64,000 nt of DNA, taken from contig JAJRZD010000012.1 in assembly GCA_024275415.1 (NCBI GenBank), positions 17,796 to 81,795 on the forward strand, read 5' to 3'. This DNA comes from an archaeon. Its GTDB lineage: Archaea; Asgardarchaeota; Thorarchaeia; Thorarchaeales; Thorarchaeaceae. A program made the position numbers and the translations under genes. Every line of letters starts with the position of its first letter. The first letter of the stretch is position 1. This document shows positions 23,084 through 53,585 of this stretch, piece by piece. Under the pieces are notes generated by a model. It saw only the letters and a program-made list of their open reading frames with translations, was not told where the DNA came from and ran no database searches.

Positions 23084-24562
23084 CTATTGGCTGCAACGAA
23101 CCGCAAGGAACCTGAGATACGCCTGCATCTCCTCTGAAAGATGAGGAGGCTTCCAATCTGAGCCATAGTCGCGGATATTGAGAGCATCAATGCCAGTCCT
23201 TTTTAGTTCCAGCTCGATACGTTCAAGCCCATTCAAGTCTGTAGACAAACCAATGCCCAACGCATTAAGTACCTCACAGCCATACACTGTGTACCACAAG
23301 AGGGTAGTATCATAATACTCGTCCTTTTTCACGATGTGGGCGCACTCCAACTCCTTTCTTCTTGCCTCAATGATTGTCGGAGAAAGCAATGCGATTGACG
23401 GAAATCTGTCTGCTAGGCTGAGATCGATGAAGTGTGTGGAACCTCCCTGTTTCACTTGCTTCACCAATGCGTCAGAGAGTCGTTCCATCAAGACTGCTCT
23501 CGCGTCTTCAAATGAGGACTCAGCATCAATGTCGTCAATGTGATCCAAGAGTGAGCCATCGTAACCTTGGAGGTGTTCTAGTTTCATGATCTCCAAGAAA
23601 GATATTCTAAGATGGTATCGAGCAAGATTGTTGAGCTTTGCATGGATCTCCCTGAACCTCGCTCTCACCACTCCAAACTCGTGAGCTCTCCATTCCTCAC
23701 GCTGAGCTGAGGTGGATATTCTAGACCTGATACTTTCAAGTCCCAGTGGCCAGACTGCTGAGCTAAACGGGAATGAGTCTATTGAGATGCGGGGCGAGAT
23801 GTGGGCTTCCTTCAAAAAGGGGAGCCCAAAGAGCGGCCACAGGTCTATTGTGGTAGAATCGATTCCTGAGATGTTGACCTGCTCTAATCGCTCACATTTG
23901 ACCAAAGGATACAGGTCTAGGTCGCGAACCTTATTCTGTGATATTCCAAGAACTCGTATGTTCGGGGTGGATGCAAAAGGCGAAAGGTCAAGCATTTCGA
24001 TTTTTGTCCAATCCACTAACAGTGTGTCGAGATTAGGACTGGTGTGCAGGAATGTGAGGTCTAGTGATGCGATAGGGTTCTCATTCAGAATGACATGCCG
24101 TAATTGCGGTTTGTTAGATAGGGGTGTCGTGTCAACTGCGCGTATCCAGTTGTGCGAAACATCGATGCTTTCAATCAGATGTGCTTGTTCAAGAGGTGAA
24201 AGGTCGAGCTCTTCCAATTGGTTGTCGCTGAGATTCACTTTTCGAATGCCAGGGCACCTGCGAAGAGGATTGAGATTTACAGCATGAATGTGGTTGTGTG
24301 AGATATCAATGGATTCCAAGGTCTCACCATTGGGCGAGCAAATGAATTCAGATAGTTCAATTCCCTCAAGGCGATTGTGACTAAGGTTCAGTGTTCTGAG
24401 ATGAGGCATCCTTGCTGCCTCGTTCAAGTCGACCTCGATGATGTCCAGACCAGAAAGGTCAAGGGTCTCATTATCAATTGGAAAAGAAAGGGTTTCTTTT
24501 TGCCGAGGTGAGTGTAAGATTTGTATCTCGATATATGGCATTGAGGCTGCAAGACTCCGCAT
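23084..24562 (-). CDS. Leucine-rich repeat protein (~12 LRRs) with ~170-aa helical C-terminal domain
   Basis: Repeated LxxLxLSxNxLxxLDLSPL units are present (LRTLNLSHNRLEGIELS, IRKVNLSDNQLEELDLSPL, LRHVILNENPIASLDLTFL and others). There is no signal peptide. Confidence 0.75.
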   Translation of the reverse strand: MRSLAASMPYIEIQILHSPRQKETLSFPIDNETLDLSGLDIIEVDLNEAARMPHLRTLNLSHNRLEGIELSEFICSPNGETLESIDISHNHIHAVNLNPLRRCPGIRKVNLSDNQLEELDLSPLEQAHLIESIDVSHNWIRAVDTTPLSNKPQLRHVILNENPIASLDLTFLHTSPNLDTLLVDWTKIEMLDLSPFASTPNIRVLGISQNKVRDLDLYPLVKCERLEQVNISGIDSTTIDLWPLFGLPFLKEAHISPRISIDSFPFSSAVWPLGLESIRSRISTSAQREEWRAHEFGVVRARFREIHAKLNNLARYHLRISFLEIMKLEHLQGYDGSLLDHIDDIDAESSFEDARAVLMERLSDALVKQVKQGGSTHFIDLSLADRFPSIALLSPTIIEARRKELECAHIVKKDEYYDTTLLWYTVYGCEVLNALGIGLSTDLNGLERIELELKRTGIDALNIRDYGSDWKPPHLSEEMQAYLRFLAVRCSQ

Positions 24563-26827: not shown

Positions 26828-27235
26828 GTGGATGAGTCTAGGAAGATTCGATACAAAACAAAAATGCGATACGTTATCGACAGATTATCCCTTGCAGAGG
26901 GATTGATTGTGAATCCGACTGAAACCGAATTGATGGCACTATATTATTCGTTGCTCACATCTATTGAGAGTGTAATGGATATGATTGCCATGATGATAAA
27001 AGACTTGGGCGAAATTGGTAAAGGTGATCGACACAACATCGAACTGTTAAGAACAAAGGACCACATCACCGAAGAACTCTCAAAGGATCTAATGGCATGC
27101 AATGGTCTGAGAAATGTCCTTGTGCATCAGTATAATGGAATAGATAAAACAATAGTCATCGAGTCGTTTGCTAATGTCAAAAAAGCACTTGGAGGAATGA
27201 TTGAAATTGTCGAGCGATTCATCGAAGAATCTTGA
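26828..27235 (+). CDS. hepT: HepT (DUF86) HEPN-domain toxin of a HepT/MntA toxin-antitoxin pair
   Basis: The R-x4-HxY HEPN motif is GLRNVLVHQYNG. The size is ~130 aa. Confidence 0.65.
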   Translation: MDESRKIRYKTKMRYVIDRLSLAEGLIVNPTETELMALYYSLLTSIESVMDMIAMMIKDLGEIGKGDRHNIELLRTKDHITEELSKDLMACNGLRNVLVHQYNGIDKTIVIESFANVKKALGGMIEIVERFIEES

Positions 27236-27602
27236 ACTCATAAGAGAAGATCTACAGGTGATTTCAGACAGAGATGTGCTTCTGTTTGGTTCCTTCCTCA
27301 CAGGTGAGTTTCGAGATGGCTCTGACATTGATGTTGCTGTTCTTGCATACTCCGAAGATCAAAATATCATGAAGAACCTCAAGATGCAGATAATCCAAGA
27401 AATCCCAGCAATCTATGATGTGTCTATCTTTGAGGCACTTCCCACCATAGTAAAGAAAAACATCCTTGAAGAATATGTAGTGGTGTTCGGAAATCCTGTA
27501 GAGATTGCAGAATACCTGAGGAGGTACTGGAAAGAGTGTCGGGATTATGCGTTTCGCTTGGAATTGCCATCTTTAGAAGAAATGAAACGAAACATTCGCT
27601 GA
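27201..27602 (+). CDS. mntA: MntA minimal nucleotidyltransferase antitoxin
   Basis: The NTase motif is LLFGSFLTGEFRDGSDIDVAVL. It overlaps hepT by 35 bp. Confidence 0.65.
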   Translation: MKLSSDSSKNLELIREDLQVISDRDVLLFGSFLTGEFRDGSDIDVAVLAYSEDQNIMKNLKMQIIQEIPAIYDVSIFEALPTIVKKNILEEYVVVFGNPVEIAEYLRRYWKECRDYAFRLELPSLEEMKRNIR

Positions 27603-27810: not shown

Positions 27811-28164
27811 ATGCTACAAGGAGTAGTCGTGCTGAACGAATCTGGTGAAACCGTCATTTCTCTAGGGAAGAATGGCATGGGTTGTAACACCGAGATGGTC
27901 GGCGACTTGGTCGGGGCAGTCCAGATGTTCATACAACAGATGACTGGCGATACTGTGAAATCGATAGCCTTCGGTGAAATTACCCTGTATCTGTGCCAGA
28001 CTGAGAATGGTCATGTGATAACAATGTACGACTTGGATGATGACTCTGGCAAGGTACAAAGCCAGCGAATTGCCGAACTCGTAACGGACAACCGAACTAT
28101 GGAAGACACTTTCAGGTTCATCAATCAGATCTCGCAGATGCTTGATGAGGGCAATGACACCTGA
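27811..28164 (+). CDS. Roadblock/LC7 (MglB-like) domain protein, putative
   Basis: The ORF is 117 aa. Its beta-alpha-beta-beta-alpha pattern (GVVVLNESGETVISLG ... MVGDLVGAVQMFIQQM ... GEITLYLCQTENGHVITMYD) resembles Roadblock/LC7 folds. This rests on pattern only and is not verified. Confidence 0.35.
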   Translation: MLQGVVVLNESGETVISLGKNGMGCNTEMVGDLVGAVQMFIQQMTGDTVKSIAFGEITLYLCQTENGHVITMYDLDDDSGKVQSQRIAELVTDNRTMEDTFRFINQISQMLDEGNDT

Positions 28165-28254: not shown

Positions 28255-29268
28255 CTACAGGTAGAATCTCTTACAATACGGCGTTGAGTGCCTTGACTGC
28301 ATTTCATGTGTCCATGAGGCAGGCAGACTGAATCCTGAACACTTGTACGCGATATCAGATAGGATCCAGGGGCCATTCAATGGCTGAAGAAGCCAAGGAT
28401 AATCAGACATGTCTTCCGTTAGCAATGGTTTCCATTGGTACAGCTGTGTCGATACAGGTCCATCCTGTGTGACTGAATATATCGCATTGATCACCGCCCC
28501 GTCATTCTGCCATTGATGTGCAAAACACCGGATATTCCGCCACTCAACTGTATCGATGACGACTCCGGACATAAAGCGACCAAGTTTCTTTCCCTGTACC
28601 CAGTAATAGCCGTTCTTGCCTGCTGCAAATAGAACGCCATTCTCGATGTCATTACCGTCCCGCAGCGATTCCTCCAAGAGGAATGGTTCCGATCCTAAGA
28701 ACTTCTCTGCCTCTCGGACAAGCATGTCATGAATGGGTCTGTCACGCAGGACGGTGTTCAGGTCAAGAACCGCGTTGTAAGTCAGGCTCGCGGGCATTCT
28801 CTCAAGATATGAGAGGCCCCTCATGATAGGTTTCTCCTCTGTGAAAGACTCGCCAGTCCTGATGTCCTCAATGATGTCAAGACACAGACGCATCGTAGAC
28901 TGGAAATGATCCCTGATATCCTGCTTGGTCTGGCCACTTTCTCCCCTGGGTGCCTTGACTTCGAAGGAACTCGTTTCAGTAGTGTGACAGCCGTATTGAT
29001 CCAGCGCGATGCCCGAAATCAAAACCCTATCATCCTTCTTGGGCTCGACGCCTCGGATACAATCATAGGGAATTACCTTCGAAATGCGGTATGCTTGCTT
29101 ACGATTCTTTTCTAAAAGCACAGTTCTTCTGCTGGTCAGGACAAAGAACCCATTCTGGATCTCACAGACAAGGTGGACTTCCTCATTGGGCAAAAGGCAC
29201 TGCCGAGCAACCTTGAACATCTCGGCTCCAGAAGGTGTAAGGGTTTCGATTGTTTCGACCATGCACAT
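28255..29268 (-). CDS. Hypothetical protein, N-terminal ~110 aa bacterial-type PH-like (bPH/GRAM-like) domain
   Basis: EEVHLVCEIQNGFFVLTSRRTVLLEKN...ISKVIPYDCIRGVE fits the bPH pattern (G..vLTn.Rli). The rest is unassigned. Confidence 0.3.
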   Translation of the reverse strand: MCMVETIETLTPSGAEMFKVARQCLLPNEEVHLVCEIQNGFFVLTSRRTVLLEKNRKQAYRISKVIPYDCIRGVEPKKDDRVLISGIALDQYGCHTTETSSFEVKAPRGESGQTKQDIRDHFQSTMRLCLDIIEDIRTGESFTEEKPIMRGLSYLERMPASLTYNAVLDLNTVLRDRPIHDMLVREAEKFLGSEPFLLEESLRDGNDIENGVLFAAGKNGYYWVQGKKLGRFMSGVVIDTVEWRNIRCFAHQWQNDGAVINAIYSVTQDGPVSTQLYQWKPLLTEDMSDYPWLLQPLNGPWILSDIAYKCSGFSLPASWTHEMQSRHSTPYCKRFYL

Positions 29269-29274
29269 ACCTCG

Positions 29275-29721
29275 CTATTTTAAGAAACTACGTTTTAGTT
29301 TGTCCATGGGACATGCCTTCGTCTTGAGCATTACATCAGGGTTGGCAGCTTGTAGCTTCTCCTTGAACACACCATCTGGGAGCCTGACATACCCGGACTT
29401 CTCAATCTCGATGAACGCAATCCACGGGCTTTCCTGAAGGGTTTCAATCAACCTCTGGAGATTCTTTGCAGGCTCCTTGGCAGCGGTATCAATCAATGCC
29501 TTGCAGTTGTCACACATAAAAAAGAAACCAGGAAGCTTTACGAGAACCTGCGTGTGTCGCTTGTCTTGACGAGTGGTCTTTTTGTCGACGTGAAAAAGAC
29601 CTATGATTGCATGATGGGAATCCACAGTGTCTGGGACATCACATCCACAGGACAGACACGCCTTTGGCCATCTAAGGGCTATCACATCTTCGCGATTCTT
29701 CATATCTGAGAATTTGTACAA
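29275..29721 (-). CDS. Hypothetical zinc-ribbon protein
   Basis: The ORF is 148 aa. Cys pairs are CLSCGC and CDNC. It lies 6 bp downstream of the preceding gene on the same strand. Confidence 0.35.
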   Translation of the reverse strand: MYKFSDMKNREDVIALRWPKACLSCGCDVPDTVDSHHAIIGLFHVDKKTTRQDKRHTQVLVKLPGFFFMCDNCKALIDTAAKEPAKNLQRLIETLQESPWIAFIEIEKSGYVRLPDGVFKEKLQAANPDVMLKTKACPMDKLKRSFLK

Positions 29722-29844: not shown

Positions 29845-31236
29845 CTACTGGACATCGACCTCGGTGGAGGTCTTGCCAGTGTCCCCAACAGATTCTTTGA
29901 GACGTTCGAAATCAGGGTCTATATTCGTGTACCTCAGGATTATCGCAGACACGATCAGAAATGGAGCGAAGAACGGCCCCCACCAAAGATATCCAAAGAG
30001 CTCACTGCCTGTGTTTATCACAGAGTAGTCCATGAACCATCCCAAGAGGAATGCTGACGCAGCCTGAAACAGATTCAAAGGTACTCCCTTGAAGCCCTCG
30101 TAGATTCCAGCCCTGCTCTGTCCAGTGACCAGCTCATCGACATGAGCTATGTCCGCAGGAACGATGTAGCTCATCAGATAATAGACCGCCATGCAGGCAG
30201 CCAGTGGGACAAAGTACAATGACGCCACGAGCACATTTGATATGAATGCCGAGAACTCCCCGAGGAATGGTGTCAATGACATCAATCCAGCAAGTGCCAA
30301 AAGCGAGTAGAACATTGGTTTCCCCTTTCCTACTTTTTTCACAAGCTTGACCCAGATGTACAAGAACACCATTATCGAAACAAGCAAAGCCATTGCTGGT
30401 GGAAGGAGCTTATCGATGCTGTCCAGCAGGAGAACCGACTGGGAGTATCCTACCACCTGAGAGGTAATAGCAGAGTAGCTGAACGACAGGAATCCTATAA
30501 TGAACATCCATTTCACATAAACGTCGTTCTTCAGTACCAGAGAGGTCTCTGCGATGAGGCTCCTCTTAGGTATCACAATATCGGGTTTTTCGCGGATGAG
30601 GGCGATGGATGGCAAGTAACAGAGAACCGTGATGATAGCAAATACCAGCACGATCATGAAACCAATCGAGGTTAGACCAGGCGTAGGGGACAAGACAAAG
30701 AGGAGAGGTGTCACGAACCCAATGACCACGCCCAGACCATTGGCAATCCAGTTCGCAGTGTTCTGCATACTAGACACCAGTGGACGTTCATCCTCATCGG
30801 TTATCTCGGGCATCCATGCTTGGAACGCTGTAAGCAAAAACGCATAGAAGAACTTGAAGGTGCATATCATCAAGAGATAATATCCAAATACCAACATCTC
30901 ATTGGCTGGATCCGCAGTATTGATGAACCAGTTCGGCACGAACAGCAAGAATCCAGTCACTGCAAGACCAGGGGCTCCTATCACAACGAAAGGCTTCCTA
31001 CGGCCCCAACGAGTGTCAATAGAGTCACTGAAGTATCCCGTGAGCCAGTGAGTCAGACCAATGACCACAAACGAAGCAGAAATAGCAATCCCATTGAGAA
31101 GCCAATTCAGCTCAAAGATTGTTCCGTAGATCCAGAAGGTAGTCAATCCAGCTAGGGACAAGAGGAAAGAAGAACCGAATCGACCCATGCCATAGGCGAA
31201 TTTCTTGTAAAAGGGGAGCACTCTACTACACCTCAT
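29845..31236 (-). CDS. MFS transporter, glycoside-pentoside-hexuronide (GPH):cation symporter family
   Basis: It has 12 TM helices. The GPH signature after TM2 is DTRWGRRKPFVVIG. Confidence 0.7.
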   Translation of the reverse strand: MRCSRVLPFYKKFAYGMGRFGSSFLLSLAGLTTFWIYGTIFELNWLLNGIAISASFVVIGLTHWLTGYFSDSIDTRWGRRKPFVVIGAPGLAVTGFLLFVPNWFINTADPANEMLVFGYYLLMICTFKFFYAFLLTAFQAWMPEITDEDERPLVSSMQNTANWIANGLGVVIGFVTPLLFVLSPTPGLTSIGFMIVLVFAIITVLCYLPSIALIREKPDIVIPKRSLIAETSLVLKNDVYVKWMFIIGFLSFSYSAITSQVVGYSQSVLLLDSIDKLLPPAMALLVSIMVFLYIWVKLVKKVGKGKPMFYSLLALAGLMSLTPFLGEFSAFISNVLVASLYFVPLAACMAVYYLMSYIVPADIAHVDELVTGQSRAGIYEGFKGVPLNLFQAASAFLLGWFMDYSVINTGSELFGYLWWGPFFAPFLIVSAIILRYTNIDPDFERLKESVGDTGKTSTEVDVQ

Positions 31237-31337
31237 TTGCTGTACGCTAATCGATGAAGAAATGTTCTCGAAGATATAAATCTACGGAGTAGCAATCCGT
31301 GACCAATGAGCGGCGTAGAACTCGCTGTCCAGGTATA

Positions 31338-31820
31338 TTAGGTATGTCTATGCCCATTATGAAGCTCATTCTTGTATGCCCTTGCACAGTGGACGCAGCA
31401 GAATCCCAGTGTCACTCCATCAACCTCCTCATAATGCGCCCCATCATAGACCCTCGCACCGCAACTTGCACAGGTGGACAGTGAAGGTTCCAGTGCGGAA
31501 ACCGTTATGGCTGCAAACCGTTTGAATAGCCGATTCGTGAACTCGACTCCTTTCTTAGTCAGCGAGTATACAATCTTCGGTCTCTTTCCCGATGATGCAT
31601 CAGACTTGGTGACAAGCCCACGAGCCTCCAGCTTCTGTAAGAATGGGTAGAGCGTGCCCGCGCTCAATGAATTGCCTGTGCGGTTCTTGAAGGCTCTCAT
31701 TATCCCATAGCCGTGGAGTGGGCCTTCATGCAATAGCATCATGATATAGAACTGTGAGAAGTCTGAAAGGATTGAAGAGATCTCGCTACCGGAAGAGTCC
31801 TTTGGTTCACTGTCATTCAT
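31338..31820 (-). CDS. PadR family transcriptional regulator with C-terminal Cys4 zinc ribbon
   Basis: The PadR wHTH block is YIMMLLHEGPLHGYGIMRAFKNRTGNSLSAGTLYPFLQKLEARGLV. The C-terminal Cys motifs are CASCGAR and CCVHC. Confidence 0.75.
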   Translation of the reverse strand: MNDSEPKDSSGSEISSILSDFSQFYIMMLLHEGPLHGYGIMRAFKNRTGNSLSAGTLYPFLQKLEARGLVTKSDASSGKRPKIVYSLTKKGVEFTNRLFKRFAAITVSALEPSLSTCASCGARVYDGAHYEEVDGVTLGFCCVHCARAYKNELHNGHRHT

Positions 31821-31851: not shown

Positions 31852-31878
31852 GATATATCTATACGGATATATATATCG
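31852..31878 (-). promoter_or_regulatory. AT-alternating imperfect inverted repeat (gatatatctatacggatatatatatcg) 32-58 bp upstream of padR start; putative TATA/BRE promoter and/or PadR operator
   Basis: Read in the intergenic region between the GTPase stop and the PadR start. The spacing is compatible with an archaeal leaderless promoter. Confidence 0.3.
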
Positions 31879-31914: not shown

Positions 31915-32502
31915 TCACCCAATAAAATGATTGCTTTCCTTCGTTTCTTGAGATTCAGACATCATCCTTAGAAGGTCATTGAAAGTACTCTCGATATTAT
32001 ATCCTGTCTTAGCTGAGGTTTCCTTGAAGACCGCAGGAACGCCCAGTTTCTCGATGAAATACTCTGTGAACTTCCGTCCTTCGTCGGCAGTTACACGTTC
32101 CTCCTCTGGAACCGTTTCACGAAGGTCTGTCTTGTTACCTACAATGACTGTAGGTGGTAGAGGTCCCATATTCTTGTAGGCCTCTACTAACCACTTGCTC
32201 GCGTTGTCAAAGGAGTCCCGATCCACTGTGGAATAGACTAGAATGATACCATTGCAGCCGTGGTAGTAATGTCCTCGAACCTGTTTAAATGATGGCTGAC
32301 CAGCAAGATCCCATATTATGAATTTGACGATCTCATTATCGAACAGGACTCGTTTCGTGGCGAGGTCAACACCAATGGTTGCGATGTGTCCTTCAATGAA
32401 CTCATCTCCGAGATAGTTACGTCTAATCGATGTCTTACCTACCGCACCATCCCCAATTAGGACAGCTTTCATTATTTTTGAGCCATCATCTTGATCTCTC
32501 AT
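31915..32502 (-). CDS. Ras-superfamily small GTPase (Rab/Ras-like)
   Basis: G1 is GDGAVGKT. The switch I Thr is in TIGVD. G3 is WDLAGQ. G4 is GNKTD. G5 is ETSAK. There is no C-terminal prenylation motif. The likely start may be the internal ATG at 32472 (MKAVLIGDG). Confidence 0.85.
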   Translation of the reverse strand: MRDQDDGSKIMKAVLIGDGAVGKTSIRRNYLGDEFIEGHIATIGVDLATKRVLFDNEIVKFIIWDLAGQPSFKQVRGHYYHGCNGIILVYSTVDRDSFDNASKWLVEAYKNMGPLPPTVIVGNKTDLRETVPEEERVTADEGRKFTEYFIEKLGVPAVFKETSAKTGYNIESTFNDLLRMMSESQETKESNHFIG

Positions 32503-32624
32503 ATGGACGAATCCTCTCTCAATTTGGATACCCTTTCAAATATATCCGGCATAGCAATCCTTTGTACTATAGCTTTGGCATCCTACAAAATAAAGGTTAG
32601 TGTCTTTCAGTCCGAGCTGTAATA

Positions 32625-33881
32625 TTACGAGCCTATTCCTTCCAGTATTTTGCCTATTCTCTGTGAGAACCTTCGAGGTGTAACTGAATTGCACCTGACA
32701 TTTGTGCATTTGTGAAATGTAGCAAAGTTCTCAAGTCCCTTGCACAGCCTTGCAACCCCATCATCGGTCTGCAGTCTGTCATCTTCAAGGTAGAGTGATA
32801 CAAGTTCGAGGACGCCAGTCTTTCTGTGTACTTTCGCGTCAACACGCCCACGCAATTCGTCTTGGTCAAGGATTGGCAGAACGAAATAGCCATACTTGCG
32901 CTCCGCAACAGGCACATAGCATTCGATGCGATAGTCAAAGTCCCATAAAGTCTTGGGATAGTGTCTTTCTCTGAGGATATTATCAAAAGGGGTCAGAATC
33001 TTCACAGGCTCATCCGCCACGGGGACAGGATCTTTCTCGATACGCGAAGTATAGTTGCTGTGCACAAAATACTTGCCGCTTTGTCCAAAGTCAATCTCTT
33101 CCAAGAGGTCGCCGCACAAATCTGCGAGGTCTGCTTCGATGTTTGCTTTTCTATTCTGCCAGAGATGTCGTGCGGTCAACCTGCCCGTGTAGAGTTGTAT
33201 ATCACGATAATCAGCCACACCCAACGAGCGGAACACCAAATCGATTACAAAGCGGGGGATATCCTCTAGCGGCATCGGTTCAGTATCTATCCCTGCAGGA
33301 ACAACGCGTTCTGTGATATCATAGTATTTCTGAAATCCCTCTCGATAAGCAACCATCAGTCGGCCTATGTTCATCAGGTATTCCAGAGCACGCTTCTCGT
33401 GTTTCCAATCCCACCAGCTCTTGCTTTTTGACTCTATACGACCAATATCCTTACTTCGTGTAGGCCCATCTTGCTTGACTTTCTTGTAGACTGCCTCGAC
33501 GATATCGCTGTGCTCAAGACCCCACCTGACGAACCAGCCAGTCTTCTGCTCTCGCATCCTTGCCATCTTCCACGAATAGAAGGAGAACGTATCCATCGGG
33601 AGAAGGCACATAGCATGTGACCAGTATTCGAATAGATTGCCCTTTCGTTCTTCTTTCCAGACAGCACCTTCTTCGTAATCTTGGAAACGGTTGAAGACTA
33701 TCAAATTGTGGCTACGACTCACGACCGAGATTGTATCGATCTGGATATTGTGGATGCGGCGCGCCACCTCGATGATTGAGGTACACGGCTTCCTAGTCCT
33801 GAGACCCTGTGTTTCTAGAATGAGCCTTCTTACCTGTTCAGGGGATGCCACAATCATAACAACCTGAAAACGAAACCTCAT
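32625..33881 (-). CDS. YcaQ/AlkZ-like winged-helix DNA glycosylase family protein (HTH_42)
   Basis: IQIDTISVVSRSHNLIVFNRFQDY and ECYVPVAERKYGYFVLPILDQDELRGRVDAKVHRKTGVLELVSLYLE align closely with E. coli YcaQ (LQIDTINIVARSPYLVLFSRLGNY; ECYTPAPKRQYGYFVLPLLHRGQLVGRMDAKMHRQTGTLEVISLWLQ). Confidence 0.8.
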   Translation of the reverse strand: MRFRFQVVMIVASPEQVRRLILETQGLRTRKPCTSIIEVARRIHNIQIDTISVVSRSHNLIVFNRFQDYEEGAVWKEERKGNLFEYWSHAMCLLPMDTFSFYSWKMARMREQKTGWFVRWGLEHSDIVEAVYKKVKQDGPTRSKDIGRIESKSKSWWDWKHEKRALEYLMNIGRLMVAYREGFQKYYDITERVVPAGIDTEPMPLEDIPRFVIDLVFRSLGVADYRDIQLYTGRLTARHLWQNRKANIEADLADLCGDLLEEIDFGQSGKYFVHSNYTSRIEKDPVPVADEPVKILTPFDNILRERHYPKTLWDFDYRIECYVPVAERKYGYFVLPILDQDELRGRVDAKVHRKTGVLELVSLYLEDDRLQTDDGVARLCKGLENFATFHKCTNVRCNSVTPRRFSQRIGKILEGIGS

Positions 33882-34722: not shown

Positions 34723-37620
34723 GTGAAGCGTGTACTGTTGCTCCTAGGGCTAGTTCTGTCGCTAGTAGCCCTAGGAATACCTATCTGTCCCGACAGAGTG
34801 CCCGATGAACAAGTTGCCAAACCAGTCGCCACCCCAGAGGAGTTTGTGGATGTCGGCGAGAAGAAGGATGTGACGATCAGGTTCGAAAGGGAGTTGACTG
34901 TAAATGAGATTGAAAATTTCCGGAGGCAGGGAATCTATTTCGATGAAGACCCGAAACACATCGGGGATGTATACCTAGCACGGGCATCTGATGTGGCTCT
35001 GGAATATCTGGAAAGGAATCCTATATTTGAAAGGGCCGAACCTCTCAAAAGATCATTCTACCAGTTGCCTAGGGACGTTTCAGCAGGTGAAACTTTTACA
35101 AATCTGACTTGGAACATAAAAGACGGCCAAGGACTGAATCTCACGGGAAAGGACATCATGATTGCCGACCTCGATACTGGGATACAGTGGAGGCATCCGG
35201 ACTTCCTCTTTCCTGATGGCGGCGAATACAGCTGGTTCGATGTGTCAATCAATTGGGTCTTTGATAATGGCACGGACGGGATCGATACCAACGGTGACTT
35301 GTCGATATCTGCGAAAGAAAAGCTCTATTCCATCGACACTGACAACAACTCCGTATTTGATATGGAGTACGATTGGCTCTGGATGGACAACGGGTCTAGC
35401 ATTGGTGTGATAGATGATGGTGACTCCTTCTTTATCGTGAACGATACGAACTCTGACGGTAATTTCGATTCAGGAGATACCCTCGTCGGACTGAAGACGC
35501 CAAAGACGAAGTACATCGTACACAAACCAAGTGGGAGCATCCAAGTCTGGGATCGCGACGTCAACTTGACCTCTAGCACATACTACGATACAGATGGCCA
35601 TGGCACAGGGGTTGCCGGCATATTGAATGGGGGACACCTTGGATTCAGTAGGCAATTCGTCGGCATGGCCCCAGATGCGGAACTCATGGCAATCAACATA
35701 TTCGGCTCAGATGGACTCTCGGTCGAAGAGGGTTTGATATGGGCCCGAGACCATGGTGCAGATGTCGTTCTGATCGAGGTCGGGTCGTGGACATACGACT
35801 TCTTGGATGGCTCAAGTAATGCTGAAGCTATGATAGACTCATTAACGGAACAAGGAATCCCAGTGATTGTGCCAGCAGGGAATCTAGGTGGGGCAAAGAG
35901 ACACACTGACACGGCGATAACTGGTAATGTCACTCTTACAGAGCAGTTCGGCGCACCAACTGGGACAGGCATCGGCACTTTTTACATAACGCTCCTGTGT
36001 GACCAGTTGCTAGATAATGCAAAGGTCAATATCACTGAACCCACATCAAGTGGCTCGCTGACCCATCAAATCTCCTTGGGAAGCGGTTATAATTCGTGGT
36101 CGTCCATATCAACACCTAACGTAACTATCTGGGCATTCGTCGCTAATTCCACGAAACCTGGAAATCACATGATTGCCATTGCTATATCGGGCACAATAGA
36201 AGATACACAGTTGTGGTCTGTAGATATCCAAATCCAGACGACCGGACACATTCATTTCTATATCTCTGATGATGCAACCTCGTGGAGCGGAGGTGCATAT
36301 TGGAACACTTCGACAAACACGCATTTGATCACATGGCCTTCTACAGCAGACACTGCAATATCCGTGGCATCATATATGTCCCGAAATCTGTGGATTCCTG
36401 GCTATGGTCAGATTGCCCCCTATTCAGCTGTCGGTCCAAGGATTGACGGGACGCCAAAAATATCAGTTGCGGCCCCGGGTGGATGGGACATTGTTTCGGC
36501 ATGGTCCAATGACTCTGCATGGGCAAGTTGGATGACTGGGAAAGGAGGACTGCCCCTATATCCACGCTTTGGCGGGTATCAGCTCTTCAGCGGCACATCA
36601 GCGGCAGGACCACATGTCGCAGGAGCTGCTGCATTGGTTCTTCAGCTCGATATTACCCGAAACCTCAGAATGAAAGATATCATAGAGGCATCTGCATACC
36701 AGGACATCTACACAGGAAACCTTGCAAGATACCCGGCAATTCAAAATTCAACAGTCTGGGGTTATGGCAAGCTCAACGCCTGTGCAGCTGTAGAAGAAGT
36801 GATGCAATATCCTGTCATTAATGACCTCTTGCATTCACCTTCAAGTCCAGAATACAACGATACAGTCACAGTGACAGCGAATGTTTCAAACGCGGACTAT
36901 GTTGGAATTCATTGGACGACTAACAATTGGACAACAGGCTACGACGCTAACATGACATTCACAAATGGTTTGTACGTATTCGACATACCAGAGTATCCGT
37001 ACGGGACTCGTGTTGACTATAAGATCACCCCGGTGAATACGTCTGCCCTGATGAATCCAGAACAGTCGAGTTGGTATACAGTTGGGGACATGACCCCACC
37101 AATAATAGACCTCTTTGCTCACAATGCTTCAAGTAGTGTGTTCGATAATACTAGCGTACACGTATCCGTGCTTGTATCAGAACCGCCCGGGTCGTCAGGA
37201 ATAGATTCAGTCGTCCTTGAGGTTTCAGTGGACAACTGGGTCACACTGACGACTACAGTCATGGTATCCAACGGGACACACTATGAGGGGACGATTCAGC
37301 CTCACACGTATCCTGCTACTGTCACGTTCAGAGTCGCTGTCAACGACTCTGCTGGAAACAGTAAGGCAAGCTCAGAAGTCACCTATACGATTGAGGAGTC
37401 TGGCTCTACTACGACGACTACCACTTCGACCACTACTACAACTACGACCACAACAGATACCTCGACTACAACAACGTCCGACACAGACACGACTGGGCCT
37501 GGCTCGACAACACCCACAATTGGGATAACTGACTGGATACGTGAGAACATGCTCGTGATGCTTGGAGCAGCATTTGCAGTGTTCATCATCGTGTTAATCA
37601 TGGTAGTTCGCAGAAGATAA
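34723..37620 (+). CDS. Secreted subtilisin-like S8 serine peptidase with C-terminal Ig-like domains, Thr-rich linker and C-terminal TM anchor
   Basis: GTG start with signal peptide MKRVLLLLGLVLSLVALG. The triad is IADLDTGI (Asp), DGHGTGVAGI (His), SGTSAAGPHVAGAAALV (Ser). The C-terminus is 40-aa T/S-rich, then ...TTGPGSTTPTIGITDWIRENMLVMLGAAFAVFIIVLIMVVRRR. Confidence 0.85.
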   Translation: MKRVLLLLGLVLSLVALGIPICPDRVPDEQVAKPVATPEEFVDVGEKKDVTIRFERELTVNEIENFRRQGIYFDEDPKHIGDVYLARASDVALEYLERNPIFERAEPLKRSFYQLPRDVSAGETFTNLTWNIKDGQGLNLTGKDIMIADLDTGIQWRHPDFLFPDGGEYSWFDVSINWVFDNGTDGIDTNGDLSISAKEKLYSIDTDNNSVFDMEYDWLWMDNGSSIGVIDDGDSFFIVNDTNSDGNFDSGDTLVGLKTPKTKYIVHKPSGSIQVWDRDVNLTSSTYYDTDGHGTGVAGILNGGHLGFSRQFVGMAPDAELMAINIFGSDGLSVEEGLIWARDHGADVVLIEVGSWTYDFLDGSSNAEAMIDSLTEQGIPVIVPAGNLGGAKRHTDTAITGNVTLTEQFGAPTGTGIGTFYITLLCDQLLDNAKVNITEPTSSGSLTHQISLGSGYNSWSSISTPNVTIWAFVANSTKPGNHMIAIAISGTIEDTQLWSVDIQIQTTGHIHFYISDDATSWSGGAYWNTSTNTHLITWPSTADTAISVASYMSRNLWIPGYGQIAPYSAVGPRIDGTPKISVAAPGGWDIVSAWSNDSAWASWMTGKGGLPLYPRFGGYQLFSGTSAAGPHVAGAAALVLQLDITRNLRMKDIIEASAYQDIYTGNLARYPAIQNSTVWGYGKLNACAAVEEVMQYPVINDLLHSPSSPEYNDTVTVTANVSNADYVGIHWTTNNWTTGYDANMTFTNGLYVFDIPEYPYGTRVDYKITPVNTSALMNPEQSSWYTVGDMTPPIIDLFAHNASSSVFDNTSVHVSVLVSEPPGSSGIDSVVLEVSVDNWVTLTTTVMVSNGTHYEGTIQPHTYPATVTFRVAVNDSAGNSKASSEVTYTIEESGSTTTTTTSTTTTTTTTTDTSTTTTSDTDTTGPGSTTPTIGITDWIRENMLVMLGAAFAVFIIVLIMVVRRR
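37380..37500 (+). repeat. Low-complexity ACN/ACG codon run encoding Thr/Ser-rich linker
   Basis: actacgacgactaccacttcgaccactactacaactacgaccacaaca... It lies inside the S8 peptidase CDS. Confidence 0.8.
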
Positions 37621-39827: not shown

Positions 39828-42473
39828 TTGGCTTCCCTCAAGCCAGAATACAACAAGGTGTTTTTTATGCTCAGTAAAACGCGCGCCATAATGATATTTG
39901 GAATTATCATATTCCTTCTTGGCTCTACAATCTCCGTCAATTTGACAGACAATGCCAAGACAAATCAAACTCAGGACAGCATGGATGGTTCCACGTCGGA
40001 TGAGTTCTCTGCTTCATCGGTCAATTTGCAGACTGACTCTTGGAAAATGAACCATCTTCCAAATGGGGATTTTGAGGGGTGGACAAATCCACATAACCCA
40101 CAGTATTTTACTACCACACGAACCACTGAAAGATATGTGTGGTACGCATCGTCGCCGTATCCTGTCAACGAGTCCAGTAGGTCTCTAGGGATGCAGGTAC
40201 GCGCTGTAGACAATGCCTATCCTTCCGAAGCACGGTTATCGCCACAGAATCAGGTATTCTGGAATAACCCCACGAATCTCACGATGAGATTTGACTACTT
40301 TTTGGATGCTTTCATGAACCCATCTACAAACAGCTATTTCAAGCTTGAAATCACAGTTAAAGCGCTTTCCAACATCCGGCTGACATATTATCTGGCTGGA
40401 AATACGACCCTCTCGAACTCTACATACTACGGATATTATGTCCTAGACAGTCCACTATCACAATGGAATCGTTTTGATAGGAACGTCACTCAAGACTTGA
40501 TTGCTGCGACTGGAAATACTCCTACTCAATTCAATACGTTCTATTTCTATCTTAAGACTAACGAGAGTTCCTATCAAAGAACATTCATTGATGACTTTTA
40601 TCTGGTGAATGGCACAGTACGGATTGGAGGAAGCGTGAACAATGGCAATTTTGAAACCTCAGGGACATGGTATTGGCTGACAAACAATGATCCAGGGGAT
40701 ATCGTTCAGACTTCGGATCGCCAGAACGGTGATTGGGCAGCTAACATGACCGTGGTATCACGAGGGAACATTAGTAAAGCAACAATCTCCCAGCGAGCAG
40801 GTGTAAGACTTGCAGACCAGAACCCTGACCGTTTCATGTTCTATTGGAAGATTGATCAGTGGATTAATCCCAATCAGTACTCATATGCTTACTTGTCTGT
40901 GGAAATGGAAAATCAAACAAGTTCATTCTATCTATACTATTGGTTTGCATACGCAGGGACACCGGCTCCATTCTCATACAGTGGCTACAACCATGTCCAA
41001 GTAGATGGCTTCAACACTACGGGTTCTTGGAACCTGTTCGACCGCAGCATATGGGAAGATATAACGTCGTTCAACTCGACTTCAGAGGTCTTTGTCAGGG
41101 ACATCGAGTTCATCGTTTATGCTGACAGATATCCAAGCACGGTCAGTCTCTTTGTTGATGACTTGAAGGTTGAGGCTGCTATTCTGAACGACATGAGCTA
41201 CGAAGATCAAGGAGATGTTGGAGATTATGTCCGTTCTTGGGGATCATGGAATATCGAAACAGCAAACGAATTCAGAGTTACAGACTTCGCATATACCGGC
41301 TCTAAGGCTGCAAACCTGACAATGACACCCTCAACCTATGTAGGTTTTTATCGGAATCTGAAAGCCATGCCCTTCAACGCATCGACTGAGGTTATCCTAG
41401 ACTTCAATTGGTACTTAGACGAATTTACATCTACTGGGAACGACTACATCGAGTTCTATTTTTACTTTGGAACCGATGTAGGAATTCATTACTTGATTGC
41501 TGCTGGGCCTGGTGCGTCGGTGTCCAACACATCTACTGAGAAGTATATCTATATTGAAGGCGCCAATATGACGGGGGCATGGCGCAACGCAGAACTGGAT
41601 CTCGCGGCGGATTACTTGGCCCTATTTGGGACTGTGCCTGATACCACTATTAGCGACATTTCTCTGATTGCCGAGGGGGATGCTGGTGGCCGATTGGAAC
41701 TCATTCTTGATGACCTGTACCTTGTTGAAGGGACATGGCCCAGAGTGTCTGGTCTGACTCAATTACCAGCACTGCCAGAAACAGGGATGGATGTCAACAT
41801 TTCTGTATCAACATACGATAAGAATCTAGATTCTGTTCTCTTGCGGTATCGGGTCGATGGCAGTTCGTGGAATTCTCTCCCGATGAGCAAGGAGGGTGCG
41901 TCCATATTCACCGCTACTATTCCCGGGCAAGACTGGGCGTCATTGGTAGAATACTACATCTATGCGAATGACACCTACGGACATGAAACTCTAGGAATGT
42001 CTGGCTCGGAGTACTACTCGTTTACCGTGCAGGATACGATAGCTCCGACAATGCAGGTTCAAGGTCTTACCAATGAGTCGACAGTTGGCGGAGTGGTAGA
42101 CATGACCGTTATACCAGACGATAACAGTTCAGGCATCCAACGAGTCGAGATATCTGTTGATGGAACCACTGTATCGAATGATACCACATCGCCTTACGAA
42201 TACAGCTGGGACACGGTTTCTGAAGATAATGGACAGCATGTCATCGTGATAAAGGCTGTCGATAATGCTGGGAACACGTACGAGATGAAGTACATTGTCA
42301 CAGTGTATAACGCTGAGACCTCAACACCAACCACACCGACTACCTCAACGAATACACCAGAGCCTCCTGGTTCACCGGACATGCTACTGATCGTTGTGAT
42401 TGGAATCGCAGTTGTTGCTGGCGTGGTCGTCATTCTCTTCGTTCTCTTGCGACAACGAACCTTGAGCCATTAG
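39828..42473 (+). CDS. Large surface/cell-envelope protein (N-terminal signal/TM, many N-glycosylation sequons, Ig-like C-terminal domains, Thr/Pro linker, C-terminal TM anchor)
   Basis: The N-terminal hydrophobic segment is MIFGIIIFLLGSTISVN. Frequent N-x-S/T sequons occur. The C-terminus is ...TSTPTTPTTSTNTPEPPGSPDMLLIVVIGIAVVAGVVVILFVLLRQRTLSH. Confidence 0.6.
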   Translation: MASLKPEYNKVFFMLSKTRAIMIFGIIIFLLGSTISVNLTDNAKTNQTQDSMDGSTSDEFSASSVNLQTDSWKMNHLPNGDFEGWTNPHNPQYFTTTRTTERYVWYASSPYPVNESSRSLGMQVRAVDNAYPSEARLSPQNQVFWNNPTNLTMRFDYFLDAFMNPSTNSYFKLEITVKALSNIRLTYYLAGNTTLSNSTYYGYYVLDSPLSQWNRFDRNVTQDLIAATGNTPTQFNTFYFYLKTNESSYQRTFIDDFYLVNGTVRIGGSVNNGNFETSGTWYWLTNNDPGDIVQTSDRQNGDWAANMTVVSRGNISKATISQRAGVRLADQNPDRFMFYWKIDQWINPNQYSYAYLSVEMENQTSSFYLYYWFAYAGTPAPFSYSGYNHVQVDGFNTTGSWNLFDRSIWEDITSFNSTSEVFVRDIEFIVYADRYPSTVSLFVDDLKVEAAILNDMSYEDQGDVGDYVRSWGSWNIETANEFRVTDFAYTGSKAANLTMTPSTYVGFYRNLKAMPFNASTEVILDFNWYLDEFTSTGNDYIEFYFYFGTDVGIHYLIAAGPGASVSNTSTEKYIYIEGANMTGAWRNAELDLAADYLALFGTVPDTTISDISLIAEGDAGGRLELILDDLYLVEGTWPRVSGLTQLPALPETGMDVNISVSTYDKNLDSVLLRYRVDGSSWNSLPMSKEGASIFTATIPGQDWASLVEYYIYANDTYGHETLGMSGSEYYSFTVQDTIAPTMQVQGLTNESTVGGVVDMTVIPDDNSSGIQRVEISVDGTTVSNDTTSPYEYSWDTVSEDNGQHVIVIKAVDNAGNTYEMKYIVTVYNAETSTPTTPTTSTNTPEPPGSPDMLLIVVIGIAVVAGVVVILFVLLRQRTLSH

Positions 42474-42544: not shown

Positions 42545-43645
42545 TCATGGCAGCACAGAAGACGATATCGAAACGTCATGTAACATGAGGAGATCCACCA
42601 TCACGAAAGCCGTCAAATTCTCGACGACCGGGACAGCGCGAGGGACGATACACGGATCATGTCGTCCAGTTACCCTCAACTCTGTTGTTTTTATTTCCGC
42701 CAAGTCAATAGTTGTTTGAGGCTTAGATATGCTTGGAGTGGGTTTGAAGGCGGCTCTGAACACGATTGGAGCCCCAGTGCTCAACCCACCTAGGATACCG
42801 CCTGCGTTATTGCTCCTCCAAACGAGTCCATTGGATGTGTATTCCACCTGGTCATTGTGGTCAGACCCGTTCATAGAAGCAGCCTTGAACCCAGCCCCGA
42901 ACTCGATGCCCTTCACACCGGGGATACTGAACATAGCGTGGCTTATACGACTCTCGATGGAATCAAACAACGGCTCACCTACTCCTATAGGGAGATTCAG
43001 TACACGACACTCGACTATACCACCAACCGAATCACCTTCACTTCGCGCCCGAAGGATCTCCTCTTCCATAAGTCGAGATACATTGGTATCAATGCATCCA
43101 GTGGAGTTGGAATGCTTGCATCGAGCAAGCTCGTCGTCGGTAGGGTTCTGCTCCAAAGCGATATTTCCAACTTGGACTGTATGAGCTAGGACACTAATGT
43201 TCCGTATAGAAAGGATTTGCTTTGCGACTGCCCCTGCCAACACGTACACTGCGGTCATGCGTCCAGAGAAGAATCCGCCACCCCGATAGTCGTTGAATCC
43301 ATTGTATTTGTAGAATGCGGTGAAGTCTGCATGTCCGGGTCGCGGAGTGTTTTTCATACGCTCATATGCATCCGACTGAGAATCCCTGTTCTGAATCACC
43401 ATCATAATCGGCCCTCCAGTGGTGACTCCATCAACGACACCTGTTTTCACATCGAACTGGTCTGTTTCATCCCGTGAGGAACTTGTGTGATACAGTCCGG
43501 GTCTTCGCCGTGCAAGCTCGTCCTCGATTATCTTGTAGTCCAGTTCGAGACCTGCTGGACAGCCCTCGATGCTGACCCCGATACACTCTCCATGACTTTC
43601 CCCAAACACATGAATCTTGAAGTGTCTACCCATGCTAAAGGTCAT
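42545..43645 (-). CDS. aroC: Chorismate synthase
   Basis: N-terminal FGESHGECIGVSIEGCPAGL and the overall AroC signature. There is a 4-bp overlap with aroA. Confidence 0.9.
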   Translation of the reverse strand: MTFSMGRHFKIHVFGESHGECIGVSIEGCPAGLELDYKIIEDELARRRPGLYHTSSSRDETDQFDVKTGVVDGVTTGGPIMMVIQNRDSQSDAYERMKNTPRPGHADFTAFYKYNGFNDYRGGGFFSGRMTAVYVLAGAVAKQILSIRNISVLAHTVQVGNIALEQNPTDDELARCKHSNSTGCIDTNVSRLMEEEILRARSEGDSVGGIVECRVLNLPIGVGEPLFDSIESRISHAMFSIPGVKGIEFGAGFKAASMNGSDHNDQVEYTSNGLVWRSNNAGGILGGLSTGAPIVFRAAFKPTPSISKPQTTIDLAEIKTTELRVTGRHDPCIVPRAVPVVENLTAFVMVDLLMLHDVSISSSVLP

Positions 43646-44931
43646 GACGCATATCCACTCCTCTGGATTAGGGTCGCACGAGCGCCCAGGGTCAGCATAT
43701 CACGCATGAAACTCGGATAGCTTTTTGTGCTACACTCGAAGCAGTCTATGGTGGTGGTGCCCTCAGCAACAGTACCAGCAACGAATGCAGCCATAGCAAT
43801 CCGGTGGTCATTATGGGGATTCACACTGGCACCATGCAGTCGTGTGGGTCCCTCAATCCGTAACGAGTCCTGCTCGTGTGCGATATCAACATTCATCTTA
43901 GACAGTTCGCTGATCGTGGTCTGGATCCTATCGCTCTCTTTCAACTTGAGCCTGCGGACGTTCTTCAAGACCGTAGTGCCATCAGCCTGAGATGCCACGA
44001 CTGCGAGGATCGGGACGAGGTCTGGAATATCGCTGACATCGACCGTGATTCCTTGCAGGGGACGTTTCCTCACAATGACTCCTTTCTGATAACATTCAAC
44101 GGATGCACCCATCTCTCTGAGAAGCCTCACAAACTTGGAGTCGCCTTGTACCGAAGCCTCGTGCAGTCCGATGACCCCGACACTCCCTGTAAGGGCACCA
44201 AACGCCTCAAGGAATGCAGCAGATGAATGGTCACCCTCGATATGGATCGTCTGTGCGTGATATCGTTGACTGCCGGGAATAATGAAACGGTCTGATGAGT
44301 GATGGACGTATGCGCCAAACATCCGCATCAGTTTCAGGGTCATCAGAACATAGGGCTTTGACTCGAGGCGTGAGGTAAGGACAACCTCACATTCATTTCG
44401 TGCCTTTGACCCTGCCATGAGCAGCGATGATATGAACTGCGAACTTATATCACCACGGATTAAAGTAGAACCCCCTTCGAGACCGTCACCCCGCACCTCT
44501 ATAGGTGGAAGGGCGTCACCATTTACTGAGTGGATGTTTGCGCCCCAGTCATTGAGAGAGCGAACGAGGTCACTAATGGGTCGCTGATGCAATGAGGGGT
44601 CTCCAAGAAGTAGTGAAACGCCATCAGCGAGAGAGGCAAGCCCAACGAAGAGCCTGAATGTCGTTCCCGAGCTCCCGCAATAGATGATCCCGGAAGAGGG
44701 AGCCGAGTTTCCAAGTCCTTCAATACTCAAATGACCATTCAGATGGATCCTTGCACCCAGCAGACGGGCAGCATCAATCGTGGCTTTGGTGTCGTCACAT
44801 ATCAGCGGATTAGGTATGTGTGTCTTGCCTTCAGCCAACATACCACATACGATCGCGCGATGAGTAAGGCTATTGGAAGGGGGGGCATGATGCCAACCAG
44901 TCGCGCTAGACCTCTTGACACGTACTTTCAA
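43642..44931 (-). CDS. aroA: 3-phosphoshikimate 1-carboxyvinyltransferase (EPSP synthase)
   Basis: The ORF is 429 aa. EPSPS motifs are LLGDPSLHQRPI, GNSGTTFRL-like (GSSGTTFRLF) and NDHRIAMA. Confidence 0.9.
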   Translation of the reverse strand: MKVRVKRSSATGWHHAPPSNSLTHRAIVCGMLAEGKTHIPNPLICDDTKATIDAARLLGARIHLNGHLSIEGLGNSAPSSGIIYCGSSGTTFRLFVGLASLADGVSLLLGDPSLHQRPISDLVRSLNDWGANIHSVNGDALPPIEVRGDGLEGGSTLIRGDISSQFISSLLMAGSKARNECEVVLTSRLESKPYVLMTLKLMRMFGAYVHHSSDRFIIPGSQRYHAQTIHIEGDHSSAAFLEAFGALTGSVGVIGLHEASVQGDSKFVRLLREMGASVECYQKGVIVRKRPLQGITVDVSDIPDLVPILAVVASQADGTTVLKNVRRLKLKESDRIQTTISELSKMNVDIAHEQDSLRIEGPTRLHGASVNPHNDHRIAMAAFVAGTVAEGTTTIDCFECSTKSYPSFMRDMLTLGARATLIQRSGYAS

Positions 44932-53582: not shown

Positions 53583-53585
53583 CGA

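Follow-up and report, generated by a model that had tools for sequence, protein, structure and literature searches.

A Rab-like small GTPase of Thorarchaeota and the CopA-type ATPase that recurs beside it

The GTPase and its family

The DNA analysed here is a 64,000-nucleotide stretch of a Thorarchaeaceae genome (contig JAJRZD010000012.1), which we call the window and whose coordinates are used throughout. Its subject is a gene for a small GTPase of Rab-like type, and the question is what this protein is and whether the genes around it, in the window and in related genomes, say anything about its function. The gene lies on the reverse strand (31915..32502), has an ATG start and encodes 195 amino acids (aa). 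It was recognized by its match to the Pfam Ras profile and by its membership in an orthologous group found across the Thorarchaeota. The Ras match (PF00071: E=3.9e-41; 140.8 bits, cut-off 21.6) is far beyond chance, and the protein also matches the NCBIfam small_GTP model (TIGR00231: 1.6e-19, 70.2 bits, cut-off 42.5). Weaker Pfam matches were obtained with Roc (4.5e-26) and with Arf (1.4e-13, 51 bits versus 141 for Ras). Assignment to the Arf family was considered and rejected: the Arf profile is not the best match, and the acidic N-terminus, MRDQDDGS, has no Gly2.

An earlier sequence-only reading of this DNA had claimed a complete set of G1-G5 motifs, and all five were found at the claimed residues, each encoded on the reverse strand. 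The P-loop or G1 motif, GDGAVGKT (aa 17-24, 32431..32454), is near-invariant across 110 orthologues. G2 in switch I, TIGVD (aa 42-46, 32365..32379), was placed by position and alignments and resembles RabF1 (IGVDF), while G3 in switch II, WDLAGQ (aa 64-69, 32296..32313), was placed by position and the orthologue alignment and includes the catalytic Gln69. G4, GNKTD (aa 122-126, 32125..32139), with the NKxD motif of guanine specificity, and G5, ETSAK (aa 161-165, 32008..32022), were assigned by position. All the hallmarks of the Ras superfamily are thus present: GxxxxGK[ST], the switch I threonine (T42), DxxGQ (D65-Q69), NKTD (123-126) and SAK (163-165). Across the 110 orthologues these residues hardly vary.

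Alignment of the 110 orthologues showed hardly any variation in switch I, the interswitch or switch II, and a nearly invariant N-terminal peptide, MRDQDDGS. Most orthologues end in ES-x-x-F-[IV]-G, the final Gly being present in at least 90% of them (n=110). The tail of the window protein (...SQETKESNHFIG, ending in KESNHFIG) contains no Cys, and not one of the 110 orthologues has a Cys within its last 15 residues. The Cys through which Rab proteins are geranylgeranylated is therefore missing, and the earlier statement that there is no prenylation tail holds for the whole alignment. The family also has residues of its own at aa 39, 78, 81 and 83 (window 32257..32388). His39, which sits in switch I, shows no variation and neither does His78, at least 90% of the orthologues keep Cys83, and His81 is variable; the family reads GHYYHGCNG where Rab1 has SSYYRGAHG. 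Cys83 may simply be a buried residue.

A protein search covering 5.8 billion sequences returned more than 120 protein clusters that are 72-100% identical to the GTPase, almost all of about 195 aa. The named clusters all come from metagenome-assembled genomes (MAGs) of 'Candidatus Thorarchaeota' or 'Promethearchaeota', and many are annotated as 'Rab family GTPase'. A genome scan with one genome per GTDB species yielded 50 loci with the GTPase (loci are cited here by our handles, such as L012), at 70-88% identity to the window copy. By title, nearly all of the 50 are from Thorarchaeota, Promethearchaeota or an 'uncultured archaeon', with one Heimdallarchaeota and one Hermodarchaeota. A metagenome scan that started from the most divergent orthologue (L053) reached nothing beyond the same GTPase family. 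In one subclade (L037, L040-L043, L057) a tandem paralogue, 55-58% identical, stands between the GTPase and the AlkZ-like gene described below, about 750 nucleotides (nt) upstream of the GTPase match.

Rab-like GTPases of Asgard archaea have been catalogued since 2015-2016. They are by now well documented (PMC4915359; PMC10933270; bioRxiv 10.1101/2020.10.19.343400). The sequence-only reading had argued from the rarity of such GTPases, and this argument falls away: since the window is itself Asgard (Thorarchaeota) DNA, where genes of this kind are plentiful and carry the annotation of Rab family GTPase already, this one is not unusual for its host. We regard it as an uncharacterised orthologue of a known kind.

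The same reading had placed the protein with the eukaryote-like Rab/Ras type, and this was borne out by comparison with PDB and reference sequences. All 60 PDB matches listed are Rab-type (Rab1, Ypt1, Sec4, Rab8, Rab11, Rab35, Rab7 and others). The best of them is the Rab1a chain 2rhd (7e-33), with the archaeal Thor-Rab structure 7EZB in 22nd place (3.2e-28). In a blastp comparison with reference sequences (eukaryotic GTPases and Myxococcus xanthus MglA), the bit scores ran from RAB1A (115) over RAB7A (96), RAB5A (92), RAN (80), RHOA and RAC1 (72 each), HRAS (55) and ARF1 (49) down to MglA (33.5, the lowest). The protein is 38% identical to human RAB1A over 165 aa, and its segments IGVDL, KFIIW, SFKQVR, YYHGC and LVYSTV stand where the RabF consensus reads IGVDF, KLQIW, RFRSIT, YYRGA and LVYDIT. 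By this similarity ranking the GTPase is closest to Rab, rather than to Ras, Rho, Ran or Arf.

These data also bear on the idea that the protein is a prokaryotic-type small GTPase, MglA-like or of another bacterial family, with a superficial resemblance to Rab. It shares the lack of a lipid anchor with prokaryotic small GTPases, and a gene of longin/Roadblock type lies 3.75 kb away. However, a grouping with MglA, which would have spoken against the Rab/Ras assignment, was not found: MglA matches least well of all (33.5 bits, RAB1A 115), and none of the 60 listed PDB matches is other than Rab-type. G3 of the GTPase is a canonical DxxGQ, and no MglB-like gene adjoins it on the same strand. At the position equivalent to G3, the M. 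xanthus MglA sequence used for comparison reads TVPGQ. We consider a prokaryotic-type identity extremely improbable.

The conserved neighbourhood and the loss of CopA

Comparison of the loci revealed a recurrent gene order: an AlkZ-like gene, the GTPase, in some loci a PadR-TRASH regulator, a CopA-type P1B ATPase, and in some loci a transporter of the MFS type. The CopA-like P1B ATPases have HMA, E1-E2, hydrolase and YHS domains. The 38 loci that extend 3.5 kb or more downstream were used to count adjacency. In 32 of these 38, CopA follows the GTPase on the same strand at a distance of no more than 4 kb, and in 35 within 10 kb. In 18 it follows the GTPase directly, 66-150 nt past the stop codon, and in 13 more it comes after an intervening PadR-TRASH gene. 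As a control, the 50 loci were also analysed by unsupervised clustering of every open reading frame (ORF) with 100 aa or more. CopA came out as the most prevalent identified neighbour (42 of 50 loci), before AlkZ (26), PadR (21), MFS (20) and a TPR-repeat protein (14), all other identified clusters being present in at most 13 loci each. Unlabelled ORF clusters found in 30, 22 and 15 of the 50 loci rank in between; we presume that they are antisense shadow ORFs overlapping the GTPase or CopA. In an independent metagenome sample CopA was again downstream in most loci, while two loci (L076, L077) lack it despite having downstream sequence. On these comparisons the GTPase ranks, across Thorarchaeota, with the best-conserved proteins of the locus, and a copper-exporting ATPase nearly always comes after it. 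One MAG, LCG1B.521, holds two GTPase-PadR-CopA sets on two contigs (L031, L060), which reflects either a real duplication or strain mixing in the bin.

In the window, the AlkZ-like (YcaQ-type) gene of the winged-helix DNA glycosylase family (32625..33881, reverse strand; PF06224, E=1.8e-52) precedes the GTPase; 18 of 38 loci have such a gene on the same strand at most 1.2 kb upstream. Downstream, the PadR winged-helix regulator (31338..31820, reverse strand; PF03551, 4.6e-17) was described earlier as a PadR-zinc-ribbon protein. The PadR part of this description was confirmed, and the 'zinc ribbon' turned out to be a C-terminal metal-binding motif of TRASH type, C117-x2-C120-x20-C141-x3-C145 (aa 117-145, nt 31386..31472), with supporting matches to Ta0938 (3.6e-6) and TRASH_HVO_1752_C (4.6e-4). 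In relatives the PadR-TRASH gene directly precedes CopA. The MFS gene of the window (29845..31236, reverse strand), a partly conserved downstream neighbour, is, as the earlier reading had it, of the MFS/GPH type (MFS_2 1.3e-26, TIGR00792 5e-18). A copy 64-74% identical to it was found in closer relatives only, the other downstream MFS proteins being 31-36% identical.

CopA is missing from this arrangement in the window. Between PadR and MFS there is a junction of 101 nt (31237..31337), as defined by comparison with L012:11164..14132. In L012 the points to which the 3' end of PadR and the 5' end of MFS align are separated by about 3 kb and flank a CopA gene, and these 3 kb are present in both L012 and L011. 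The window has no CopA homologue at any place. CopA has thus been cleanly lost from it, leaving a metal-sensing PadR and a palindrome without the pump that they precede in relatives. In another locus, L054, PadR and CopA have both been lost.

The spacers of the locus contain conserved elements that bear on how these genes may be transcribed. About 88 nt upstream of the GTPase ATG there is a motif resembling a TFB-recognition element and TATA box (BRE/TATA-like), GACACTAACC-T-TTATTTTG (32586..32604, reverse strand). A degenerate pattern finds a related motif in 43 of 48 loci, 64-154 nt and mostly 96-115 nt upstream of the ATG; its core, TAACCTTAT, is exact in 32 of 48, and the window carries a variant with a 1-nt insertion. 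We read this motif as a putative promoter. A GGAG element resembling a Shine-Dalgarno sequence is conserved before the start codon, and RNAalifold applied to 16 GTPase leader sequences detected no conserved structure, the GGAG element being the only thing conserved.

The GTPase-CopA and GTPase-PadR spacers of L011-L060 were compared as well. In the GTPase-PadR spacer of the window, an operator-like inverted repeat, ATATATC-N6-GATATAT (31853..31872, reverse strand), overlaps a TATA-like run, and the same repeat occurs in 11 of the 12 loci that have PadR next after the GTPase. When it is CopA that comes next, the spacer contains a TTATTA-like box and another palindrome, TTAAC-N4-GTTAA (12 of 22 loci with a strict pattern). 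These palindromes may be operators, and their occurrence in different Thorarchaeota lineages suggests that two different regulators act on the same pump. Both were also sought upstream of the GTPase, where their presence would hint at shared regulation, and neither was found there in any of 48 loci. Because each gene has its own promoter-like motif and the palindromes are absent upstream of the GTPase, the pattern argues for separately regulated units and makes co-transcription of the GTPase, PadR and CopA unlikely.

One interpretation of the neighbourhood is that the GTPase is functionally coupled to CopA copper efflux, as would be the PadR-TRASH sensor in one subclade, for example by controlling the activity, assembly or membrane placement of the pump; in that case the window would show a derived state, its pump gene having been lost or moved. 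This is consistent with the first rank of CopA among the neighbours, with its position on the same strand, either directly after the GTPase or after PadR-TRASH, and with the agreement of most loci in the independent metagenome sample. The pair is also kept while its flanks turn over: it persists even where AlkZ is down to about 50% identity and CopA to about 60%. In the MAG that has two GTPase copies (L031, L060), each is followed by PadR and CopA. The pair further stands out against the background of Asgard eukaryotic signature protein (ESP) genes, most of which lie outside conserved neighbourhoods (bioRxiv 10.1101/2020.10.19.343400). By contrast, all loci come from one class, so that shared ancestry inflates the counts. 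The promoter-like elements are separate, and the metal-type palindromes never stand upstream of the GTPase. In the loci that have lost their adjacent CopA (the window, L054, L076, L077), the GTPase has stayed intact and is conserved better than any other gene of the cluster. The GTPase has no Cys-rich metal site, and in open-access text we found no literature link between Asgard GTPases and copper transport, and no mention of the GTPase-CopA pairing. On balance we see a functional coupling as a possibility of perhaps one in four or five, well short of an even chance.

The same-strand run and the longin-type gene

The sequence-only reading had described a same-strand run, and five reverse-strand genes do follow one another: the GTPase, PadR, MFS, a 148-aa gene and a 337-aa gene, with gaps of 94, 101, 123 and 6 nt. 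The last two, like a gene on the other strand, had been flagged as partners of the GTPase. The 148-aa protein (29275..29721) has two CxxC pairs and no match to any family in hidden Markov model (HMM) searches, so of the zinc ribbon ascribed to it the Cys pairs stand and the label is plausible at most. The 337-aa gene (28255..29268) begins 6 nt further downstream, and its product probably has a bacterial-PH-like N-terminal domain. The PH-like N-terminus claimed for it is backed by weak, sub-threshold matches (for the protein itself, bPH_3 with E=0.12). In its small family (23 representatives among 1.84 billion), bPH_3 is matched by 7 of 14 members (best 0.0022), and the family profile matches a bacterial PH structure, 3HSA, with E=0.023. 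Predicted from its sequence alone, the AlphaFold model of the 337-aa protein was of no use, at a predicted confidence (pLDDT) of 40.9.

The gene on the other strand encodes a 117-aa protein (27811..28164, forward strand) that is convergent to the GTPase run, 3.75 kb from the GTPase, and has no Pfam match. Its structural model (pLDDT 74.8) has the order strand-strand-helix-strand-strand-strand-helix-helix, from which the protein is predicted to be longin-type within the Roadblock/longin superfold. It belongs to a Thorarchaeota-specific family. The earlier reading had placed a Roadblock-like protein 3.7 kb away; the distance was right and the superfold approximately so, while the fold is of longin type. 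A word-index homologue search with the 117-aa protein found only the protein itself, and a profile built from locus translations was needed to find relatives. Homologues were detected near the GTPase in only a few loci (L012, L018, L032, L036, L006/L007), and in all of these except L012 another GTPase is their partner in the pairing.

This other GTPase belongs to a second same-strand cluster (L018, L032, L036, L006/L061) that is convergent to the GTPase-CopA locus and spans L061:4364..8713 in one of them. The cluster encodes, in order, a TPR protein, a 173-aa Ras-family GTPase (PF00071, 2e-37), an 86-aa protein with weak zinc-ribbon matches, a longin-type protein of 144 aa, a 472-aa protein and a 261-aa protein. 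The cluster may correspond to the LAMTOR1-like/Rab-like/DENN operon of Liu et al.; a DENN identity of the 472-aa protein was checked with Pfam and gave no match. The window retains only the longin-type gene of this cluster. A second small GTPase was looked for in the window as a partner of the longin-type gene, and none was found. The place of the second GTPase is taken in the window by a HepT/MNT toxin-antitoxin pair. The two genes of this pair overlap (26828..27602, forward strand) and encode a HepT-like RNase (PF01934, 9e-17) and an MNT-type nucleotidyltransferase (PF18765/PF01909), the latter weakly matching the PADLOC candidate system PDC-S09.

The sequence-only reading had gone on to propose that the GTPase forms a regulatory module with the PadR-zinc-ribbon, MFS, zinc-ribbon, PH-like and Roadblock-like proteins as effectors or partners of the GTPase-activating protein (GAP) type. 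The run of genes is real, the 117-aa protein has a fold of the longin/Roadblock type that is typical of GTPase regulators, and the 337-aa protein probably begins with a PH-like domain. Conservation of the neighbourhood, whose absence that reading had itself named as refuting, was examined by tblastn of the window proteins, along with the CopA of L001, in the 50 species-level loci. The 148-aa and 337-aa genes, and an upstream 157-aa gene, were found in none of the 50, and an iterative HMM search of these loci and 14 exact-lookup loci detected no homologues of the three either. The 148-aa and 337-aa genes are thus absent even from relatives whose GTPase is 87-88% identical, and compared with L012 (GTPase 88% identical) they form a lineage-specific insertion between the MFS and longin-type genes. 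The longin-type gene is on the opposite strand, and its family clusters with the 173-aa GTPase in other genomes, which speaks against its being the partner of the window GTPase. The GTPase moreover has its own promoter-like motif, and the spacers between it and the 148-aa gene measure 94-123 nt. In strain MK-D1, small GTPase genes generally lie outside the operons of Roadblock, longin and TRAPPC3 genes (Tran et al., PMC10933270).

None of the three flagged partner genes (148-aa, 337-aa and 117-aa) is thus a conserved neighbour of the GTPase, and the proposed module is in our view very improbable. The arrangement of GTPase, PH-like, zinc-ribbon and Roadblock-like genes is an accident of lineage-specific insertion and is not worth pursuing as an effector or GAP set. 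A PADLOC search gave no match for the 337-aa, 148-aa, 157-aa and 117-aa proteins or for the GTPase, hence no evidence of a defence system among them.

Several further features of the window were noted. An extended series of overlapping genes, devoted to the biosynthesis of shikimate and tryptophan, occupies 42545..55432 on the reverse strand. It includes chorismate synthase, EPSP synthase, shikimate kinase, shikimate dehydrogenase, dehydroquinase and DHQ synthase and, on the tryptophan side, TrpA, a TrpB-like protein, TrpD and anthranilate synthase; its G+C content is 0.50-0.53, as compared with about 0.46 in the rest of the window. Two large putative secreted or surface proteins are encoded on the forward strand (34723..37620 and 39828..42473). 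Both combine a signal-like segment at the N-terminus with a Thr/Ser-rich linker and, at the C-terminus, a transmembrane anchor, and the translation of the first contains subtilisin-like Asp/His/Ser motifs. A 492-aa leucine-rich-repeat protein (23084..24562, reverse strand; LRR_8, 9e-21) has no attached Roc/GTPase domain. An Rfam scan of the whole window at gathering thresholds returned nothing.

A possible role of the GTPase and comparison with known systems

The explanation that we favour, with a probability of roughly 80%, is that the gene encodes a cytosolic, non-lipidated Rab-like GTPase with orthologues throughout the Thorarchaeota (70-90% identity), which is expressed from a transcript of its own and which, in the window, has lost its CopA neighbour and stands beside proposed partner genes that are not conserved. 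Such a protein would cycle between GTP and GDP with slow intrinsic hydrolysis, by analogy with its paralogue Thor-Rab, and would probably need a GAP and a guanine nucleotide exchange factor encoded elsewhere. It would reach its targets by protein-protein contacts and not through a prenyl anchor, probably engaging them via the invariant switch surfaces and perhaps also via the conserved terminal peptides. Its gene would be transcribed on its own, from the BRE/TATA-like motif some 90-110 nt upstream.

Several points weigh against this explanation. If the GTPase is a free-standing switch, its strong adjacency to CopA is left without a mechanistic explanation. The RabF motifs are matched only partly (IGVDL, KFIIW, YYHGC, LVYSTV), and published trees place archaeal Rab-like sequences inconclusively (PMC4915359). 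The assignment of promoter and operators derives from motif conservation only, and these elements are accordingly putative.

On its own, the GTPase is ordinary for an Asgard genome, and it is the conserved copper-pump neighbour that offers a modest new lead. Asgard small GTPases have so far come without genomic clues to their clients, and for this one the pairing with CopA is the sole clue from context. That the pairing found across Thorarchaeota is a functional unit, in which a Rab-like switch regulates the placement, assembly or activity of a metal pump, we hold to be unlikely, at about one chance in five. If it were true, the GTPase would have a concrete, testable client, and the unit would be a prokaryotic forerunner of the control that small GTPases exert over the trafficking of membrane transporters in eukaryotes. 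In eukaryotes, Rab-dependent steps govern the copper pumps ATP7A and ATP7B. A functional pairing would also provide a rare, experimentally tractable handle on the target of an archaeal Rab-like switch.

Among known systems, the eukaryotic Rab1/Ypt1/Sec4 group provides the best sequence matches, and the GTPase shares with it the full G1-G5 set and, as partial matches, segments like RabF1, RabF2 and RabF4 (IGVDL, KFIIW, YYHGC). It differs in that the window family has no hypervariable tail or prenylatable Cys (0 of 110), in having some 10 aa inserted between G4 and G5 and in an archaeal host without a demonstrated endomembrane system.

A characterised archaeal relative is Thor-Rab of Ca. Thorarchaeota SMTZ1-45 (KXH73347.1; PDB 7EZB, 7EZD, 7EZE; Tran et al. 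2024, PMC10933270), for which a crystal structure with a Rab1-like fold, slow intrinsic GTPase activity and the absence of a prenylation site were reported (PMC10933270). Both are single-domain Rab-like GTPases of Thorarchaeota with a Rab1-like core, RabF-like motifs and neither a C-terminal Cys nor prenylation machinery. Thor-Rab is encoded on LRSL01000056.1, while the SMTZ1-45 orthologue of the window protein (L029, 77% identity) lies on LRSL01000008.1; since the two are on different contigs, Thor-Rab and this orthologue are paralogues. Human Rab1A moreover gives the window protein a slightly better score than Thor-Rab does, and the Thor-Rab paper (PMC10933270) reports no conserved CopA neighbourhood.

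With prokaryotic MglA/MglB-type pairs, the system has in common a small, non-lipidated prokaryotic GTPase and a gene of the Roadblock/longin superfold in its vicinity. It differs from it in the lowest similarity of all, in the canonical DxxGQ of the window GTPase, and in a longin-type gene that lies 3.75 kb off on the other strand and is tied elsewhere to a different GTPase.

Liu et al. noted that most Asgard ESP genes are not found in conserved neighbourhoods, and named as exceptions the ESCRT cluster and the LAMTOR1-like/Rab-like/DENN operon (bioRxiv 10.1101/2020.10.19.343400). The second Thorarchaeota cluster resembles this operon in combining a GTPase with the longin-type family to which the 117-aa protein belongs. 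It differs in that its 472-aa protein has no Pfam DENN match and that another GTPase is involved, the window keeping the longin-type gene only.

For the PadR-TRASH regulator, the nearest comparison is the archaeal cop cluster of CopR and CopA (Pyrococcus furiosus PF0739/PF0740; PMC7830388). No small GTPase is described in the known cop clusters, and in the window CopA has been deleted, so that of the traits of such a cluster the fusion of a DNA-binding domain with TRASH is present and the adjoining CopA is not. The DNA-binding domain here is of PadR type, and the regulator is co-directional with CopA, in which it also differs from the Pyrococcus arrangement. Pyrococcus CopR combines a helix-turn-helix at its N-terminus with TRASH, and its octameric assembly resembles that of LrpA (PMC7830388). 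The PadR-TRASH protein has the same winged-helix plus TRASH design, and in relatives of the window the sensor adjoins a CopA-type P1B ATPase and a palindromic site lies in the promoter region, as in the cop cluster.

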